Source of the DNA: a virus
Virus record (IMG/VR): IMGVR_UViG_3300030397_000042
Coordinates: 1 to 5,601 of that record
Length of the DNA stretch: 5,601 nt
Reading direction: 5' to 3' (one strand)
The translations under genes and the position numbers were made by a program. Of the stretch, positions 1 through 5,601 are shown piece by piece. Each line of letters begins with the position of its first letter. Within the stretch, counting starts at the first letter, position 1. Under the pieces are notes generated by a model, which was not told the DNA's origin, did not search any database, and saw only the letters and a list, made by a program, of their open reading frames with translations.

Positions 1-123
1 TGGGTTTACGAAGTCCTTTGTGGAGCATGGTGTAGTTATTGGGCTTGTGAATGTTCGTGGTGACATTACTTATAGTCAAGGAATTGAGCGGTACTTTACG
101 AAGCAGACTAGGTATGATTTTTA
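1..123. repeat. Terminal direct redundancy, copy 1 (identical to 5479-5601). It marks a circular 5478-nt molecule.
   Basis: Base-by-base comparison shows 1-123 and 5479-5601 are identical (123/123). The offset is 5478, a multiple of 3, so the VP1 reading frame is continuous across the junction. Confidence 0.97.
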
Positions 124-511
124 CTATCCTGTTTTGGCTCAAATTGGTGAGCAGGCTGTTTTGAATCAGGAAATCTGGTACAATAATAGTCCGGGTACTG
201 GTGCGAGTAATGATCAAGGCGTGTTTGGTTATCAAGAGCGTTATGCTGAGTATCGGTATAAGCCGTCGCGGTTGACTAACCTGATGCGTGTTGATGCTGC
301 TGGTACATTGGCGAGTTGGCATTTGTCAGAGGATTTTGCTACGTTGCCTACTTTGGGTGCTACGTTCATTGAAAGTAATACTGGTGTTCCTTTGGATCGT
401 GCTTTACAGATTCCGAGTGAGCCGCATTTTATTTTCGATGCGTATTTTGATCTACAGTGTGCTCGGCCAATGCCGTTGTTTGGTGTTCCGGGTAATTTGG
501 ATCATTTCTAA
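1..511 (+). CDS. VP1: Major capsid protein VP1, 3' (C-terminal) part. It continues from 4391-5478 across the circular junction.
   Basis: The frame (codon starts 2, 5, 8...) is open from the window start to TAA 509-511, and it is the same frame as 4391-5601. The track ORF 20..511 is only the piece downstream of an internal GTG. The sequence ...[22 protein letters not shown]...[27 protein letters not shown] has the pattern of gokushovirus VP1 C-termini. Confidence 0.95.
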
Positions 512-1176
512 TGTCTGCGGGTGCGTGGGGACTGGCTGGTACTGCTCTAGGTGGTATTATGGGCTTTGCTGGTCAGAATGCTGCGAATCGTGCTAATGAA
601 AGATTGGCTCAGAAGCAGATGGATTTTCAGATGGCTATGTCTAATACTGCGGTGAGGCGTAGAATGGCTGATCTAAAAGCGGGTGGTATTAATCCGATTT
701 TGGCCGGTACATTCGATGCTAGTACTCCTGCGGGTGCTATGGCCGTCCATGGAAATGCTGGTGCTGCTGGAGTTACAGGTGCCCAGATGGGTGCTAGTAC
801 TGGTCGTGATGTCGTTACTTTGGGTGCTGACCTGAAGGCGATTGAAGAGCGTGCTAATCTTAGTAAGAAGCAGGCAGATGCGTTAGGTTTGATTGCGGAG
901 GCCAGTTCTAATGCTGCTGAGTTGCTTGGTTATTTATTGGATCGAGTTAAAGAAGGTCAAATGACTGAAATGGACGTTGATAATATGCTTGAATTTACGA
1001 GTGACAGTGTTAAAGGCTGGGCTCGTGGAATTCTGGATGATGTCCGTGAGAAGATAAATAATACTGGTGATGCTATTGCCGATTGGTATTCTGGCTCTGG
1101 CCGTGATCGACGTAATAATGGTCCTAATTGGTGGCGTGATAAAGACGGTACTATACATTTTGAGGTGCAGAAATGA
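511..1176 (+). CDS. VP2: Minor capsid / DNA pilot protein VP2 (phiX174 H analogue), 221 aa
   Basis: ATG 511 overlaps the VP1 stop (TAATG). The N-terminus is Gly/Ala-rich, followed by the block [33 protein letters not shown]. This resembles the conserved MxFQ..MSNTA.QR...DL..AG.NP.L motif of gokushovirus VP2. It occupies the canonical position right after VP1. Confidence 0.85.
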
Positions 1177-1715
1177 GTATGAAAGAAGTGGTGCGTGTTG
1201 TTGACGAAAAGGGTAAAAAGTCCCTTGCGTTTAAGCGCATTGTTAAAAAGAAAGACTATAGTGATGGTATGACCAAACAGGCTTTTGCTGATAGTTGTGA
1301 TATTAATAAGATGCTGAATAAAGCGCAACAGACTGGATCGTTGGCGCATTTGATGAAGTATCCGGAAGCCGTGTATGGTGAGTTCGATGGTGAGTTTTCG
1401 TTGTTAGATGCTCAACAGAGAATTCAGAGAGCTAATGAAATCTTTGCAGATGCCCCTTCTGAAATCAGAAGGGAGTTTGATAATGATGCATTGAAGTTCG
1501 TTAGGTTCGCTGGTGATCCCGCTAATAATGATAAGCTGCGGGATATTTTCCCAGCGTTGGCTGCTCCGGGGTCGTTTTTCCCGAATCCGGTGCAGCGGGG
1601 AGGCGTAGGAGCGGGTGCTGCTACTGCTCCTGCGGGTAGTGGTGAGCCGGGTAGTCCTCCACCGGCTCCTGCTGGTGACACCCCACCTGAGGGGGGTGTC
1701 AGTGCGCCAGACTGA
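1173..1715 (+). CDS. VP3: Internal scaffolding protein VP3, 180 aa, with an unusual Pro/Gly/Ala-rich C-terminal tail
   Basis: ATG 1173 overlaps the VP2 stop (ATGA). GAGG at 1162-1165 lies 7 nt upstream. The block [21 protein letters not shown] matches the conserved 'ECDIN' region of gokushovirus VP3. It occupies the canonical position after VP2. Stop is TGA 1713-1715. Confidence 0.8.
1298..1309 (+). other. Candidate (+)-strand rolling-circle origin core: TGATATTAATAA, identical to the phiX174 nick-site core
   Basis: 1298-1309 reads TGATATTAATAA. The phiX174-group 30-nt origin is CAACTTG/ATATTAATAACACTATAGACCAC, where the gene A protein nicks between G and A. The 12 nt spanning the nick are identical. 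Here they encode C-D-I-N-K within VP3. Confidence 0.3.
1677..1700 (+). other. GC-rich stem-loop (8-bp stem) inside the VP3 3' end
   Basis: gacacccc (1677-1684) pairs with ggggtgtc (1693-1700). The loop is acctgagg. Confidence 0.6.
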
Positions 1716-1736
1716 TATCAAGTAGACAGTCTGGCG
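1705..1736 (+). other. Stem-loop (10-bp GC-rich stem, 12-nt AT-rich loop) spanning the VP3 stop codon
   Basis: cgccagactg (1705-1714) pairs with cagtctggcg (1727-1736). The loop is atatcaagtaga. The VP3 TGA (1713-1715) sits at the stem/loop border. Confidence 0.65.
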
Positions 1737-1740
1737 GCGG

Positions 1741-1770
1741 AAAGGGGCACCTGATGGTGCCCCTTTTTTG
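1741..1770 (+). terminator. Rho-independent terminator closing the VP8-to-VP3 transcription unit
   Basis: aggggcacc (1743-1751) pairs perfectly with ggtgcccct (1756-1764) around loop tgat. A T run follows at 1764-1769 (tttttt, then g), and an aaa upstream can extend the stem. Confidence 0.75.
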
Positions 1771-1784
1771 TGTGATAGTTTCGC

Positions 1785-1804
1785 GGTCCCGCTTAGGCGG
1801 GACC
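1785..1804 (+). other. GC-rich stem-loop (8-bp stem, tetraloop)
   Basis: ggtcccgc (1785-1792) pairs with gcgggacc (1797-1804) around loop ttag. It is followed by aaaag, not a T tract. Confidence 0.6.
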
Positions 1805-1844
1805 AAAAGATTGCTTGGCATGAAAGTAAGCAAGGTTCGTGCCA

Positions 1845-1870
1845 ATTTAACATTCGGTATTATGCGAAAG
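1845..1870 (-). other. dif-like XerC/XerD recombination site candidate (possible attP for Xer-mediated lysogeny)
   Basis: The reverse complement of 1845-1870 is CTTTCGCATAA-TACC-GAATGTTAAAT. E. coli dif is GGTGCGCATAA-TGTATA-TTATGTTAAAT. The XerC arm shares T at position 3 plus the contiguous CGCATAA (8/11 overall). The XerD arm shares a contiguous ATGTTAAAT (9/11). The arms lie 2 nt closer than the canonical 11-6-11 layout. The site is in noncoding DNA. Confidence 0.5.
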
Positions 1871-1873
1871 TTC

Positions 1874-1901
1874 TTGCAATTGCTAATGATAAGCGTACAA
1901 T
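1874..1901 (+). promoter_or_regulatory. Sigma70-like promoter for the small-ORF cassette
   Basis: TTGCAA (1874-1879), a 16-nt spacer, then TACAAT (1896-1901). It lies about 14 nt upstream of the AGGAGG at 1915-1920. The -35 element overlaps the 8-bp palindrome gcaattgc (1876-1883). Confidence 0.4.
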
Positions 1902-1927
1902 GGGTGCTGTGTTTAGGAGGACTTGTA

Positions 1928-2095
1928 ATGATGCAGTTTCACGTTGAAGTAAGTGAAGATGGTGCCCAAGTTAATACCCGTGTTGAACTGCGGGGTACTG
2001 CTTGGGAAGTTATGGAGTTCCTGCAAACGGTGCGGGATACTCTGGATAATACAATTGATGACCTCGAACGAGGTGAAGGACGGGTAATACAATGA
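1928..2095 (+). CDS. Hypothetical small acidic protein, 55 aa
   Basis: A perfect SD (AGGAGG, 1915-1920) lies 7 nt before ATG 1928 (ATGATG). Product: MMQFHVEVSEDGAQVNTRVELRGTAWEVMEFLQTVRDTLDNTIDDLERGEGRVIQ, with 12 D/E against 5 K/R. The track's longer form from 1754 would run through the terminator, a hairpin and the dif-like site, so the short form is preferred. No family was recognised. Confidence 0.6.
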   Translation: MMQFHVEVSEDGAQVNTRVELRGTAWEVMEFLQTVRDTLDNTIDDLERGEGRVIQ

Positions 2096-2292
2096 GTAAT
2101 GAAGCTCTGATTAATGCTCTTGCGAAAGAGGAATCTAAGTTGGTTCGTCAGGAAGAGAACCATGAAGCGTCGAAGGCCGTGGTTGCCGTGATTGGTGATT
2201 CGGCTAAAGAAGCTAAGAAGCGTGATAAACAGCTAGAAGATATTGCGCAGACTAAGAAGAATATCGCTGCTCTTAAGAAAGCGATTAAATAG
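2092..2292 (+). CDS. Hypothetical lysine-rich helical (coiled-coil-like) protein, 66 aa
   Basis: ATG 2092 overlaps the upstream TGA (ATGA), which suggests translational coupling. The composition is A/K/E-rich with few helix breakers, 14 K/R against 11 D/E. It ends in three consecutive in-frame TAG codons (2290-2298). No family was recognised. Confidence 0.55.
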   Translation: MSNEALINALAKEESKLVRQEENHEASKAVVAVIGDSAKEAKKRDKQLEDIAQTKKNIAALKKAIK

Positions 2293-2321
2293 TAGTAGCG
2301 TCCTGCTGCTGCTGGCCTGAA

Positions 2322-2343
2322 CCGGGGGGAGATGTACCCCCGG
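2322..2343 (+). other. GC-only stem-loop (7-bp stem)
   Basis: ccggggg (2322-2328) pairs with cccccgg (2337-2343). The loop is gagatgta. Confidence 0.55.
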
Positions 2344-2361
2344 GGATGGCCTTGTGGCGCG

Positions 2362-2387
2362 CCAAAATCGCCGTGTGGCGATTTTGG
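2362..2387 (+). other. Perfect 11-bp stem-loop with tetraloop
   Basis: ccaaaatcgcc (2362-2372) pairs with ggcgattttgg (2377-2387) around loop gtgt. A G7 run follows rather than a T tract, so it is not a canonical terminator on either strand. Confidence 0.7.
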
Positions 2388-2397
2388 GGGGGAAGGA

Positions 2398-2446
2398 GTA
2401 CCATAGCCACCTGGAGTCGCTGCGCTCCTCTAGGCGGCTCTGGTAC
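2398..2446 (+). other. Long imperfect stem-loop (14-bp outer stem with 2 mismatches, 4-bp inner stem); weak terminator candidate
   Basis: gtaccatagccacc (2398-2411) pairs with ggcggctctggtac (2433-2446) at 12 of 14 positions. The inner pair is ggag (2413-2416) with ctcc (2425-2428). It is followed by a-tttt (2447-2451). Confidence 0.55.
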
Positions 2447-2472
2447 ATTTTAATGATGAAAGTCAAAAGACT

Positions 2473-2499
2473 CGCCCTACCCCTGATCGGGGTAGGGCG
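2473..2499 (+). other. Perfect 11-bp GC-rich stem-loop just upstream of the lipoprotein RBS
   Basis: cgccctacccc (2473-2483) pairs with ggggtagggcg (2489-2499) around loop tgatc. It ends 7 nt before GAGG 2507-2510. Confidence 0.7.
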
Positions 2500-2518
2500 T
2501 AAAAGCGAGGAAAGAGTT

Positions 2519-2710
2519 ATGAAGAAATTGGGAATAATATTAGTGACATTTTGTTTGTCCGGATGCGGTGCGATCAGTGCTACTAGTTTGCGTTGTGGTA
2601 CTGACGGTGATGATAGCTATGTAGAGTTGGTAAGCGCTCCACAAAATGTTGGTAGTAATGGGAGGGTAATTAGTGAAATCTGTGCGTTTGCGTATGATCG
2701 AGAAACTTGA
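2519..2710 (+). CDS. Small predicted lipoprotein, 63-aa precursor and 47-aa mature form
   Basis: GAGG (2507-2510) lies 8 nt before ATG 2519. The N-terminus MKKLGIILVTFCLSGC has a basic n-region, a hydrophobic core and the lipobox L-S-G-C (Cys16). Gly is at +2. The mature part is hydrophilic with two further Cys (C26, C55). The track's 118-aa form from 2354 would run through three hairpins and is rejected. Confidence 0.65.
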   Translation: MKKLGIILVTFCLSGCGAISATSLRCGTDGDDSYVELVSAPQNVGSNGRVISEICAFAYDRET

Positions 2711-2817
2711 GGACATGCTGGATTTGAATATTCGGCGTGAGTTTCGTATCCATGCTACTAAGTGGGATGCGATTAAGTGTATGGCTAGAAGTTTGTATTA
2801 TGAAGGAGTAAACAGAA

Positions 2818-2934
2818 ATGAAAAGGCGTAGTATGAGTGGTAGTGGTTCTCGTAGTTATTTTACGGCTACTGCTAGTAAGACTCATTATAAGAATATTAA
2901 GCCGCGTCCGATGCGTGGTGGTATTCGTTTGTAA
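2818..2934 (+). CDS. VP8: Small basic DNA-binding / packaging protein VP8 (phiX174 J analogue), 38 aa
   Basis: This ORF is too short to appear in the supplied track. AAGGAG (2803-2808) lies 9 nt before ATG 2818, and the stop is TAA 2932-2934. Product: MKRRSMSGSGSRSYFTATASKTHYKNIKPRPMRGGIRL, with 10 K/R and no D/E. The C-terminal KN...RPMRGG.R. signature is typical of gokushovirus ORF8/VP8. It sits directly upstream of VP4. Confidence 0.8.
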   Translation: MKRRSMSGSGSRSYFTATASKTHYKNIKPRPMRGGIRL

Positions 2935-2937
2935 GAA

Positions 2938-3954
2938 ATGGGCTGCGATAGTCCGTTGAAGGGATATAAGTGTCGTGAGACTGGTGGATTGGTTTTCAAA
3001 AAAGAGCAAAGTTTCGGAGAAAAAATGGATGTTGCGTGTGGTTCTTGTCTTGGCTGTAGGCTTGATTATAGTCGGATGTGGGCTATGCGAATTACTCACG
3101 AAGCGAGTCTGTATGAATTTGGTAGAGGCAATGCTTTTGTTACTTTAACGTATAGGGATAAGATGGAAGCTAGTCTTGAACAGTTGGAGAATCGTAAATA
3201 TATTCCTGATGATTGGAGTTTGCACCCTGAGCATATGACGTTGTTCCTGAAGCGTCTGCGGAAAGCGTATCCTGAAACTAATATTAGATTTTTTTATGCT
3301 GGGGAATACGGTCGTAGATGTAAGCATGGAATTGACGTTAAGCGTGTGGGGTGTCCTATCTGTAAGGTGGGGCGCCCCCATTTTCATGTGTGCTTGTTTA
3401 ATTTTGCTTGTGATGACTTGGAAGCGTATGCTAGTGACGGTGGAGTTATTAGAAAGACGTCTAAGAAGCTGGAAAAGATTTGGGGATATGGCTTTGTGGA
3501 TGTCGGTGAACTTAATTTTGCTAGTGCTAGTTATACTGCGGGTTATGTCTTGAAAAAGGTGCGTGGTCCTGTGGCTGATGATCATTATATGAACTTTGAT
3601 ATGGAGACGGGTGAAGTGATTTATTTGACTCCTGAGTTTGTGCGAATGTCGAGAGGCAATGCGAAGTATAAAGGTCAGAGGTGTGGGATTGGTGCCGGGT
3701 GGTATGAGAAGTACAAGGATGATGTTTTCCCTAGTGGTATGGTTCCGGTGCCGGGTAAAGGTGTAGTGCCGGGAGTGCCGCGTTATTATGATGAAATATT
3801 GAAGGAAGAGAACCCTGCGAGGTACGAAGAAATGCGTGAAGTGCGGGAGACTTATAGAAGGGAACATGCTGATGAATATACTGCTGAAAGATTGGAGACT
3901 AAACATAAGTGTAAAAAAGCGAGATTAAATATGTTTGAAAAGAGGTATTTATGA
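2938..3954 (+). CDS. VP4: Replication initiation protein VP4 (HUH rolling-circle endonuclease, phiX174 A analogue), 338 aa
   Basis: It carries an N-terminal CGSCLGCRLDYSRMWAMR block, motif 1 FVTLTY, the HUH motif GRPHFHVCLF (H-F-H at 3379-3387), and the double-Tyr motif SYTAGYVLKK (YxxxY..K). Confidence 0.95.
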   Translation: MGCDSPLKGYKCRETGGLVFKKEQSFGEKMDVACGSCLGCRLDYSRMWAMRITHEASLYEFGRGNAFVTLTYRDKMEASLEQLENRKYIPDDWSLHPEHMTLFLKRLRKAYPETNIRFFYAGEYGRRCKHGIDVKRVGCPICKVGRPHFHVCLFNFACDDLEAYASDGGVIRKTSKKLEKIWGYGFVDVGELNFASASYTAGYVLKKVRGPVADDHYMNFDMETGEVIYLTPEFVRMSRGNAKYKGQRCGIGAGWYEKYKDDVFPSGMVPVPGKGVVPGVPRYYDEILKEENPARYEEMREVRETYRREHADEYTAERLETKHKCKKARLNMFEKRYL

Positions 3955-4133
3955 ATGTATGGAGGGCGTACGAAAAAGAAGGAGATGGAATCTATGTCCC
4001 GAGATGTAGTAAGTGTGGGACGTTTAAGGAGCCTTTGCATGTGCATTGGTTTTTCACGGGTTTGTATTGTAGGAATTGCGTGCAATATAAACTTTATGAT
4101 GATTGTAGGACTTTGGAGGATATAAAGAAATGA
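3951..4133 (+). CDS. Hypothetical zinc-ribbon protein, 60 aa (CxxC-x17-CxxC)
   Basis: ATG 3951 overlaps the VP4 TGA (ATGA), and its own TGA overlaps the VP5 ATG (ATGA). AGAGG (3941-3945) lies 5 nt upstream. The four Cys are C19, C22, C40 and C43, in ...PRCSKCGTFKEPLHVHWFFTGLYCRNCVQ... Confidence 0.6.
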   Translation: MNVWRAYEKEGDGIYVPRCSKCGTFKEPLHVHWFFTGLYCRNCVQYKLYDDCRTLEDIKK

Positions 4134-4390
4134 AAGTTAAACTGTATGCTGTTTTAGATAGTGCTAGTGGGGTGTATGATGGTCCGGTTCCGGCTCAAGC
4201 TGATGGAGTCGCGATGCGTAATTTTCTGAATGTCGCTAAGAACCCTGATAGTCCTATTGGTAAGAATCCTGAGCATTTTAGTATTTGGCGTGTTGGGGAA
4301 TACAACGATGCTACTGGTGAAGTGACTCCTGAGACTAAGGAGTGTTTGGGACATGCGTTAGATTTGTTAACGCCTACTGAGGAAGAGTAA
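4130..4390 (+). CDS. VP5: Nonstructural protein VP5 (gokushovirus ORF5 family), 86 aa
   Basis: GGAGGA (4115-4120) lies 9 nt before ATG 4130. The pattern MKVKLYAVLDSASGVYDGP...AMRNF...KNPEHFSIWRVGEYNDATGEV matches the conserved VP5 layout (MK.F.V.D.K...F......A.R.F........HPEDF.L.E.G.FDD.TG). It occupies the canonical position between VP4 and VP1. Confidence 0.8.
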   Translation: MKVKLYAVLDSASGVYDGPVPAQADGVAMRNFLNVAKNPDSPIGKNPEHFSIWRVGEYNDATGEVTPETKECLGHALDLLTPTEEE

Positions 4391-5601
4391 ATGCGAAGTG
4401 TGATGAAGCATTCGTTTAGTGAGGTGCCGAGGGCGGATATTCCGCGTTCTAGTTTTAATCGGTCTCATGGTTATAAGACGACGTTCGATGCTGATGGGTT
4501 GGTTCCTGTATTTGTTGATGATATAGTGCCGGGTGATACTTTTAACTGTAATATGAATTTTTTTGCTAGGCTGGCTACGCCGTTGCATCCTATTATGGAT
4601 AATTTGTATCTTGAGAGTTTTTTCTTTTTTGTGCCGTATCGTTTGGTATGGGATAACTGGGAAAAGATGCATGGTGCGCAGGATAATCCTACCGATTCGA
4701 TTGATTTTACGGTGCCCGTTGCTACGTGGGGTGGGTCTCATAGTCTAGGTGGTACTTATGATTATATGGGTCTACCTACGGGTATTGCTAATGTTAGTAA
4801 TATTGTGCATCAGTTGCCTTTTAGGGCGTATAATCTGATTTGGAATGAGTGGTTTCGTGATGAGAATCTACAAAATAGTGAAGTCGTAGATACTGATGAC
4901 GGTCCTGATAGTCCGGCTGATTATGCTCCTTTGCTGAAGCGTGGTAAGAGACATGATTATTTTACGTCGTGCTTGCCGTGGCCTCAGAAGGGTGATGCTG
5001 TTTCGTTGCCGCTTGGTACTGTGGCTCCTGTCGAAGGTCTTACTGCTGATACTGGTCCTACGTTTGCTAGAGTGGGTTCTGCTGGTGTTGATAGTTATGG
5101 CCTTATGAATCAGACTGGTGTTGCCGATTTCGTGTGGCAGACTGATGATACTAATGGGGCGGCGGCGTGGCTTTCTACTGGTCTACAGGCTAATTTGGCT
5201 AGTGCTACTGCTGCTACTATTAATGATTTGAGGCTTGCGTTTCAGACTCAGAGGTTATTGGAGCGTGATGCCCGTTCGGGAACTAGGTATAATGAACTTA
5301 TCTTATCTCATTTTGGTGTTACTGTGCCTGATTTTCGTGTACAGCGCCCTGAGTTTCTTGGTGGTGGAAGTGAGAAGATTAATGTTAATCCCGTCGCACA
5401 GACTAGTGGTCAGCCTACTCCTGCGAGTGATGATATGCTTGGGCAGTTGGCTGCTTTTGGTACTGTATCGGGAAGTCATGGGTTTACGAAGTCCTTTGTG
5501 GAGCATGGTGTAGTTATTGGGCTTGTGAATGTTCGTGGTGACATTACTTATAGTCAAGGAATTGAGCGGTACTTTACGAAGCAGACTAGGTATGATTTTT
5601 A
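4391..5601 (+). CDS. VP1: Major capsid protein VP1, 5' part, open at the window end. The full CDS is 4391..5478 plus 1..511, 1599 nt and 532 aa.
   Basis: It is absent from the ORF track because it has no stop inside the window. ATG 4391 directly follows the VP5 TAA, and GAGGA (4379-4383) lies 7 nt upstream. Hand translation finds no stop before 5601. Sequence includes MRSVMKHSFSEVPRADIPRSSFNRSHGYKTTFDADGLVPVFVDDIVPGDTF...LPFRAYNLIWNEWFRDENLQ...RHDYFTSCLPWPQKG...INDLRLAFQTQRLLERDARSGTRYNELILSHFGV...RPEFLGGG, which are hallmark gokushovirus VP1 blocks. Confidence 0.95.
   Translation, partial: MRSVMKHSFSEVPRADIPRSSFNRSHGYKTTFDADGLVPVFVDDIVPGDTFNCNMNFFARLATPLHPIMDNLYLESFFFFVPYRLVWDNWEKMHGAQDNPTDSIDFTVPVATWGGSHSLGGTYDYMGLPTGIANVSNIVHQLPFRAYNLIWNEWFRDENLQNSEVVDTDDGPDSPADYAPLLKRGKRHDYFTSCLPWPQKGDAVSLPLGTVAPVEGLTADTGPTFARVGSAGVDSYGLMNQTGVADFVWQTDDTNGAAAWLSTGLQANLASATAATINDLRLAFQTQRLLERDARSGTRYNELILSHFGVTVPDFRVQRPEFLGGGSEKINVNPVAQTSGQPTPASDDMLGQLAAFGTVSGSHGFTKSFVEHGVVIGLVNVRGDITYSQGIERYFTKQTRYDF
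5479..5601. repeat. Terminal direct redundancy, copy 2 (identical to 1-123)
   Basis: See copy 1. This is an exact 123-nt duplicate, consistent with assembly or linearisation overlap of a circular genome. Confidence 0.97.

Follow-up and report, generated by a model that had tools for sequence, protein, structure and literature searches.

The window analyzed here, the 5,601-nt virus sequence IMGVR_UViG_3300030397_000042 from IMG/VR (positions 1 to 5,601 of that record), carries a gokushovirus genome whose non-coding island contains a 26-mer resembling dif, the bacterial site used by the host recombinases XerC and XerD. Comparison with a related lineage indicates that this motif is real, that it is constrained at the level of DNA, and that its 26-nt geometry is the maintained form. 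We favor, with slightly less than even confidence, the reading that the dif-like 26-mer belongs to a control element that is bound by a protein and flanked by two divergent promoter-like sites; a temperate lifestyle is not supported. From the observations described below we infer that the motif binds a protein, that it serves transcriptional regulation, and that this sequence does not make the phage temperate.

The dif-like 26-mer and its conserved block

Read on the minus strand, the motif is CTTTCGCATAA-TACC-GAATGTTAAAT. Its arms agree with E. coli dif at 8/11 (XerC) and 9/11 (XerD) positions, and the blocks CGCATAA and ATGTTAAAT lie 6 nt apart, which places the arms 2 nt closer than in the canonical 11-6-11 arrangement. 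An earlier note on this DNA had described all of this exactly, including sequence and coordinates. Both half-sites match beta/gamma-proteobacterial arm classes. The XerC-like half-site, CTTTCGCATAA, scores higher with the XerC-arm matrix than any other site of the genome (11.3 bits) and is identical at 10/11 positions to the Haemophilus influenzae arm ATTTCGCATAA; its plus strand is also 10/11 identical to the XerD arm of Xanthomonas campestris, TTATGCGAAAT. In the XerD-like half-site, the outer nine nucleotides ATGTTAAAT are exact, and the inner TT is replaced by GA in the window and by AA in the related genome L303. This inner part is the most conserved portion of real dif sites (PMC2731167). 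The center, TACC in the window and TACG in L303, has at most TA in common with usual dif centers.

To score the match, we built a dif weight matrix from the 48 proteobacterial sites tabulated by Carnoy and Roten (PMC2731167). The best ungapped 28-nt match in the window reaches 2.1 bits (training median 31; real sites 18–40), and therefore the window contains no canonical dif. With two matrix columns deleted, the 26-mer becomes the best match of the genome at 20.4 bits, a score equaled in 5 of 500 shuffles searched with the same family of gapped models. Compared with the 48 sites one by one, the arms match at best 19/22 positions (H. influenzae type, 4-bp spacing), as do 5 of 200 shuffles, and at spacings of 6–8 bp the best value of 17/22 is the shuffle median. 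The 17/22 arm match to E. coli dif, with any gap of 3–9 nt allowed, recurs in 13 of 300 dinucleotide shuffles. On sequence alone, the dif match is thus suggestive and modestly above chance. The earlier note had called the arrangement very unlikely by chance; these shuffles temper that claim, and it is conservation of the motif in L303 that provides strong evidence of its being real.

The 26-mer forms the core of a 48-nt block (GCAAGGTTCGTGCCAATTTAACATTCGGTATTATGCGAAAGTTCTTGC) shared with the L303 lineage (L303/304/305/311/312, strains 97–99% identical to one another), whose VP1 is 74% identical to that of the window. L303 carries CTTTCGCATAA TACG AAATGTTAAAT in the corresponding island (3809–3834), identical to the window motif at 24 of 26 positions. 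Outside the block the two islands cannot be aligned, and the core genes are 67–74% identical at the DNA level, which makes the block, at 96% identity, the most highly conserved stretch of the two genomes. The only two differences within the block are adjacent and fall on the center of the motif (1855–1856, plus-strand CG versus TC). Since the 2-nt-short geometry is common to two lineages whose genes differ by about 30%, we can rule out a recently decayed relic, one of the options in the earlier note; that note had also named lack of conservation in related microviruses as an argument against its proposal, and the L303 lineage does have the motif. An assembly error as the source of the 26-nt geometry is ruled out by three independent assemblies in which the island sequence is identical.

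Two frames read through the block without a stop codon, and in L303 a start codon ATG with a good ribosome-binding site lies ahead of it. Identical residues are encoded by identical codons in 12/13 and 15/15 cases in these frames, compared to 56% in real genes. Because this codon identity exceeds that of real genes, coding does not account for the conservation of the block. The window open reading frame (ORF) across the block has no ribosome-binding site, the window and L303 ORFs differ in length and end, and the ORF through the block matched nothing but itself in a search of 5.8 billion proteins. The block also folds no better than shuffled sequence (z −1.2 to −2.5, not significant), which led us to reject a role as single-strand structure and suggests that the primary duplex sequence is what is kept.

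The motif has a patchy distribution. It is missing, with background scores, from L001, L002, L003, L097, both L098/L099 genomes, L302, L307, L308/309, L310 and L313–316, so that 10 of 12 clade lineages lack it. Scanning IMG/VR for exact patterns of the motif and of its left flank gave no carriers, and blastn searches with the island and with the block against phage and plasmid collections returned nothing significant.

Promoter-like flanks and a putative control element

Conservation between the window and L303 continues 15 nt beyond the XerD-like arm, where a different motif explains it. The minus strand reads TGGCACG-AACC-TTGCT, a perfect sigma-54 −24/−12 consensus with exact spacing. Even with one mismatch allowed, only 6 of 200 shuffles contain any match to this pattern. 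An alignment of the islands from four subclade lineages revealed invariant TCGTGCCAA and GCAnG in all four, and the dif-like part in the window and L303 only. The GG-N10-GC pattern is kept in L303 (TGGCACGAACCTTGCA), L302 (TGGCACGAAACCTGCA) and L310 (TGGCACGATTCCTGCA), and differences occur only in the spacer. Across 862 kb of gokushovirus sequence we counted seven minus-strand matches to this pattern, six of which lie in the subclade island, compared to about 1.85 expected on both strands. Eight of the 12 clade lineages lack the sigma-54-like box. The earlier note was right that a dif-like motif is present and missed both the 48-nt extent of the conserved block and its opposite-strand, sigma-54-type half.

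Transcription from the sigma-54-type box would run leftward through the hairpins of the island, antisense to the genes. An Rfam search gave a match to P11 on the minus strand (1856–1741) with 25 bits against a threshold of 70, which makes it a sub-threshold lead only, and relatives gave no such match. The consensus of P11, a small RNA of Pseudomonas, itself starts with a sigma-54 box. Our literature search found no papers that link sigma-54 promoters with Microviridae.

On the other side of the motif, a rightward TTGCAA-16-TACAAT sequence is followed by AGGAGG (1917–1922) and then by the start codon ATG (1928) of an orphan ORF of 55 aa. The −35 part of this promoter-like site is the only part inside the conserved block. 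The dif-like 26-mer plus 3 nt makes up the 28-nt gap (1846–1873) between the sigma-54 box and the rightward −35. In L302 the equivalent gap holds the palindrome GCCAAC-TTAG-GTTGGC, and in L310 it holds two tandem TTGTAACAA palindromes placed 10 bp, or one helical turn, apart; both genomes retain the box. Since the gaps of these sister lineages are occupied by palindromes typical of dimeric DNA-binding proteins, we surmise that the dif-like part is a protein site as well. The element would then consist of two modules, the minus-strand sigma-54-type −24/−12 box and the dif-like 28 nt between this box and the rightward −35. A host protein or a conserved phage protein bound to the dif-like sequence may set the activity of both flanking promoters. 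By eye, we recognized no convincing consensus for IHF, LexA, CRP or ArgR in the 26-mer. The promoter spacer at 1882–1898 (GCTAATGATAAGCGTAC) matches 12 of 19 positions of the 19-bp Fur-box consensus by eye and is not conserved in L303.

Several observations weigh against a control element of this kind. The half-sites do not form a generic palindrome: they combine XerC-specific and XerD-specific outer sequences, the combination that distinguishes dif. The best dif-like match of the genome coincides with its only conserved non-coding block, a coincidence that, if the two were unrelated, we would roughly expect once in 10^4 genomes by our own estimate, before allowing for the number of genomes screened. 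The sole two substitutions sit centrally, as a Xer site would predict. The sigma-70-like rightward promoter is weak, and no L303 equivalent passes the consensus scan. The sigma-54 box is itself a prediction from sequence and would be antisense to every gene. Finally, with only two lineages carrying the motif, constraint on individual bases is poorly resolved.

The genomic setting of the island is summarized in Table 1. A 123-nt terminal repeat identifies the window as a complete circular genome of 5478 nt with every gene on the plus strand. Searches of the window proteins against Pfam and PHROGs yielded VP1–VP5-type genes only and no integrase, in agreement with the earlier note, which had placed the motif in a non-coding gap of an approximately 5.5-kb, integrase-less genome.

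Table 1. Features of the window and of selected relatives. Positions refer to the window unless another sequence is named.
Feature	Position	Strand	Remarks
dif-like 26-mer CTTTCGCATAA-TACC-GAATGTTAAAT	1845–1870	−	direct reading
XerC-arm-like half-site CTTTCGCATAA	1860–1870	−	plus strand TTATGCGAAAG; identical in L303
XerD-arm-like half-site GAATGTTAAAT	1845–1855	−	9/11 to TTATGTTAAAT; L303 has AAATGTTAAAT
Short center	1855–1859		4 nt between arms (minus-strand TACC, 1856–1859) plus L303-variant positions 1855–1856
Conserved block	1830–1877		48 nt; 46/48 identical to L303 3794–3841
Sigma-54-type −24/−12 box TGGCACGAACCTTGCT	1829–1844	−	exact TGGCACG-N4-TTGCW; leftward, antisense to all genes
Sigma-54-type box in relatives	L303 3793–3808; L302 ~4179–4194; L310 ~3904–3919	−	
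Sigma-70-like promoter TTGCAA-16-TACAAT	1874–1901	+	consensus scan; weak
Imperfect hairpin TTGGCATGAA / TTCGTGCCAA	1815–1845	+	DNA fold; −24 box in stem on packaged strand
GC-rich 8-bp hairpin GGTCCCGC-TTAG-GCGGGACC	1785–1804	+	inverted repeat
Intrinsic terminator behind VP3	1741–1772	+	11-bp GC-rich hairpin, then T-run (inverted repeat, fold)
Family-wide gokushovirus element GGTGTCAGT with 10-bp hairpin, loop ATATCAAGTAGA	1695–1736	+	inverted orientation here
Non-coding island	1716–1927		sole large one in genome
VP1 capsid	4391 across junction to 511	+	
VP2 pilot protein	511–1176	+	
VP3 scaffold	1173–1715	+	
Two small ORFs	1928–2095 and 2092–2292	+	
63-aa lipoprotein	2519–2710	+	signal MKKLGIILVTFCLSGC
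VP4 Rep	2938–3954	+	
60-aa ORF		+	listed between VP4 and VP5
VP5	4130–4390	+	
Integrated gokushovirus L083	L083 7895–12455		Phascolarctobacterium faecium DSM 14760, NZ_QLTS01000001.1

The accessory region behind VP3 differs among relatives. Between L303 (3859/3860) and L312 (2944), strains otherwise 97–99% identical, the first small ORF has been swapped; the breakpoint falls within the promoter-like spacer, 18 nt past the right end of the conserved block, which marks the accessory-gene slot downstream of the block as a recombination hot spot. The clade member L307 (VP1 73% identical) encodes a 71-aa helix-turn-helix protein in this region (L307 5001–5216), showing that in some relatives it supplies a DNA-binding regulator of the phage's own. 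No gene is better conserved between the window and L303 than that of the 63-aa lipoprotein (83% identity in amino acids, 86% in nucleotides). It has no Pfam or PHROG matches, and its 65 relatives, some of them named YceK-like by the Joint Genome Institute (JGI), are all on microvirus-sized contigs. This protein could function in lysis or superinfection exclusion, and it hints at a Gram-negative host.

Xer recombination, coincidence and replication as alternatives

A functional, non-canonical Xer site bound by host XerC and/or XerD is the main rival explanation, one that we take seriously but regard as unlikely. Such a site might support a single XerC-catalyzed exchange beside dif, in the manner of integrative mobile elements exploiting Xer (IMEX), with a short overlap or a shifted or degenerate XerD arm of the TLC type; alternatively, it might recruit the proteins without recombination. 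The quality of the arms (10/11 for the XerC class and 9/11 for the XerD class), the rarity of the gapped score among shuffles, and the non-coding location in an integrase-less genome are all consistent with this explanation, as is a second lineage that keeps both arms and changes only the center. A patchy distribution is also seen for the sporadic dif motifs of other gokushoviruses (PMC7062461). Viral dif-like sites tolerate diverse centers, and phage-side XerD arms can be degenerate or shifted, as in site B of L177 and in the validated motif GGTGCGCATAATGTAAGGTTATGTCAAA. Against this stand the missing inner TT of the XerD arm and the fact that conservation extends past this arm into the sigma-54-type box, as well as the geometry of the site and the failure to find prophages.

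With regard to geometry, all 11 integrated or dif-bearing gokushovirus controls have the 11-6-11 arrangement with the center T(G/A)TA(T/C)A, unlike TACC or TACG, and a 4-bp center occurs in none of them and in none of the 48 bacterial dif sites. No tyrosine recombinase site is known to have a 4-bp center; known Xer sites have 6–8 bp. In L083, L277 and L278, the latter two being megabase metagenome contigs, a 4.5-kb gokushovirus lies between ACGTCCGATAA TATATA TTATGTAAAAT and another site in which TATATA TTATGTAAAGC is retained. In L081 (155–5219) and L279, a 5.0-kb gokushovirus lies between ACGTCGCATAA TATATA TTTGGTTAAGT and ATGTCGCATAA TATATA TTATGTTAAAT. L177 combines E. coli dif with site B, GGTGCGTATAA TGTACA GTTATGTTCAA, and the free genomes L009, L018, L230, L237, L040/L051, L274 and L236 carry 28-mers with the centers TGTATA, TATATA or TATACA. 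Among the 125 viral sites in IMG/VR that contain CGCATAA and ATGTTAAAT within 4–10 nt of each other, central sequences vary highly, and 108 have a 6-bp (79) or 7-bp (29) center. The 6-nt block spacing of the window occurs in five, and the non-canonical cases that we examined are chance matches in coding DNA. Two apparent parallels to the window motif had to be rejected: a 26-nt "short" motif in L013/L034/L036 lies in VP4 and encodes the catalytic-tyrosine motif of Rep, and the 15 nt shared with L117/L146 (TACCGAATGTTAAAT) belong to coding sequence of a tailed phage. The putative site in the window thus departs from every working or candidate site in both spacing and central sequence.

Folding of the packaged strand does not rescue a recombination site. 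The earlier note had raised a CTX-style attachment site (attP) made of folded single-stranded DNA. No second copy of either arm (with up to two mismatches) exists nearby on the plus strand, and none of the inverted repeats of the genome involves 1845–1870. In the absence of inverted partner arms on the packaged strand and of a significant fold of the block, we can rule out this type of site.

The search for integrated copies was equally negative. When the genome was compared by megablast with 5,426 E. coli genomes, a prophage check of the kind suggested in the earlier note, no match was obtained. A VP1 scan of 185,579 species-representative genomes found a closest relative of 58% identity, and among the matches listed in a VP1 scan of metagenomes, relatives reach 60% identity at most. 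None of about 185 clade relatives (120 with the closest VP1 and 65 with the lipoprotein) is on a contig longer than 10.3 kb or in bacterial DNA. The over-length contigs L098, L311 and L313 were considered as prophages and turned out to be concatemers or chimeras. In three samples, contigs continue across the site as in the circular phage genome. More distant gokushoviruses integrated beside dif were readily detected by these searches. This negative result is bounded by sparse sampling of the window lineage, as indicated by a nearest VP1 relative of only 76% identity among 5.8 billion proteins, and by the scan of one genome per species. Lysogeny via the 26-mer is so far unsupported, and the suggestion that this phage is a candidate for lysogeny is left with no integrated copy and with a spacing outside that of known Xer sites.

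These searches also turned up gokushoviruses of 4.5–5.0 kb beside dif in non-enterobacterial genomes, namely, in a Negativicute isolate and in gut metagenome-assembled genomes and contigs of up to 2.3 Mb. Each of these prophages has a canonical dif on one side and another 11-6-11 site on the other. Kirchberger and Ochman found no gokushovirus prophages outside Enterobacteria at the time of their study (PMC7062461).

A further proposal, improbable in our judgment, is that XerC and XerD bind the site, short by 2 bp as it is, in an undescribed way. The 26-mer would then be either an attachment site with a 4-bp overlap or a shifted register, or a non-recombining landing pad that gates the sigma-54 antisense transcript.

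We attach a similarly small probability to the idea that the dif likeness is a coincidence that arose from screening many genomes and that the block is shared through a short recombinational transfer or a small ORF. The chance of a gapped match is about 1–4% per genome, which is not rare across hundreds of genomes, and matches of approximately 20 bits do arise from unrelated constraints such as the Rep catalytic motif in VP4 (L013/L034/L036) or coding DNA (L117/L146). The open frames across the block, including the well-initiated one in L303, would fit a small ORF, and the breakpoint between L312 and L303 indicates that the region exchanges modules. A small ORF is difficult to reconcile with codon identity far above that of real genes, with the missing ribosome-binding site and unequal ORFs, and with the lack of protein homologues. 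Homologous exchange would hardly produce a patch of 48–60 nt whose flanks cannot be aligned, and the sigma-54 half is conserved independently in four lineages.

The remaining alternative concerns replication and calls for a look at the hairpins of the island, which folds far better than shuffled sequence (z −8.8). The hairpin at the sigma-54 box is partly retained in L310 and L303, and counterparts of the VP3 terminator are present in L303 and L001. Just behind VP3, 75 of 191 gokushovirus loci carry a family-wide element, GGTGTCAGT beside a 7–12 bp hairpin with the loop ..ATCAAGTAG.. (for example, L097 972–1012, L083, L081, L009 and approximately 70 other loci). A per-sequence census of the stems showed that their sequence varies from genome to genome and that self-complementarity is kept; RNAalifold returned no structure for this hairpin, because variation in loop length misaligns the 3′ arm. 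In the usual orientation, as in L097, the gene strand carries CTACTTGAT, a CTTGAT nick motif of the phiX174/pC194 type. The CTTGATA of the window is on the minus strand at 1716–1722, and the hairpin is inverted throughout the window subclade (L001 ~5157, L302 ~3992, L303 ~3631, L310 ~3755). We regard the family-wide hairpin as a good candidate origin for Rep; were it the plus-strand origin, one would expect its inversion to make it inactive. The sigma-54-like box on the minus strand, upstream of the hairpin and in the same sense, belongs to this very subclade. The ends of L001 (1–18 and 5336–5353) consist of GTTTCCCAGTCACGATC and its reverse complement, which resembles a random-amplification primer, so that these contig ends are probably artefactual.

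That the block itself is a replication element, either an origin nicked or bound by Rep (VP4) or a primer site for the complementary strand, is the most doubtful of the explanations: its place in a hairpin-rich island, the sigma-54-like box on the would-be primer strand and partly within a packaged-strand hairpin stem, and an origin position left open by the inverted hairpin would fit such a role, but relatives with similar Rep should all retain an essential origin, and 10 of 12 clade lineages lack the dif-like part and eight the sigma-54-like box. The 48-nt block has neither a phiX174/pC194-type nick motif nor significant structure, and the family-wide CTTGAT-loop hairpin is the better origin candidate.

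Significance and comparison with known systems

Gokushoviruses are among the most abundant phage groups in metagenomes, and their lysogeny outside the enterobacterial group is an open question. Its inference from sequence has relied on dif-like motifs as the sole marker. The window illustrates that a motif can be dif-like, non-coding and conserved, and yet lack the geometry of any working site. We therefore suggest that motif-based calls of temperate microviruses need to be accompanied by a check of spacing and a check for prophages. If the 26-mer is a regulatory site, as we tentatively favor, its interest lies in this caution and in an unexpected sigma-54-type box. A conserved box of this type on the non-coding strand, together with an inverted phiX174-like nick hairpin, would alter how non-coding regions of microviruses are read. 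If, instead, Xer proteins do bind the 26-mer, the substrate range of a well-studied recombinase pair would be extended, and a working Xer site would represent a variant of the established phage dif motifs of gokushoviruses (PMC7062461).

The precedent cited in the earlier note is accurate, in that enterogokushoviruses integrate via XerCD at a phage dif motif; the validated motif is the 28-mer GGTGCGCATAATGTAAGGTTATGTCAAA, and the putative motifs listed for other genomes are also 28-mers (PMC7062461). The EC6098-type phage dif described by Kirchberger and Ochman in 2020 resembles the window motif in several respects (PMC7062461). Both are found in a short non-coding region of an integrase-less gokushovirus, both have an XerC-type arm that ends in CGCATAA and a less perfect XerD-type arm, and both are sporadic among relatives. 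In contrast to the 4-bp TACC of the window, the EC6098-type site, GGTGCGCATAA TGTAAG GTTATGTCAAA, has a 6–7 bp center that resembles host dif. Some 90 or more prophages flanked by dif are documented for this group (PMC7062461), compared to none found for the window. VP1 of the window is about 53% identical to that of the enterogokushovirus group (L177).

The IMEX attachment sites of the CTX, VGJ and TLC types also serve elements that lack an integrase and use host XerCD. Their center may be non-homologous or their XerD arm degenerate, and a single pair of strand exchanges is possible. The known types have either a 6–7 bp center or a folded single-stranded DNA hairpin, neither of which is a property of the window site.

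Bacterial dif of the beta/gamma-proteobacterial 11-6-11 type resembles the window motif in its arms: the XerC arm of the window is 10/11 identical to ATTTCGCATAA, and the outer nine nucleotides of its XerD arm are those of TTATGTTAAAT. Like bacterial dif, the window motif is an AT-rich, non-coding, imperfect palindrome. All 48 tabulated bacterial sites are 28 nt long (PMC2731167), and the window motif is short by 2 nt, including the inner TT. The adjoining half of the conserved block invites comparison with sigma-54 (RpoN) promoters. Unlike the usual promoters of this class, it has no recognized activator-binding site and would be antisense to every microvirus gene. In common with such promoters, for example, that at the start of P11, it has the exact TGGCACG-N4-TTGCT sequence, followed by a hairpin-rich stretch of about 80–100 nt.

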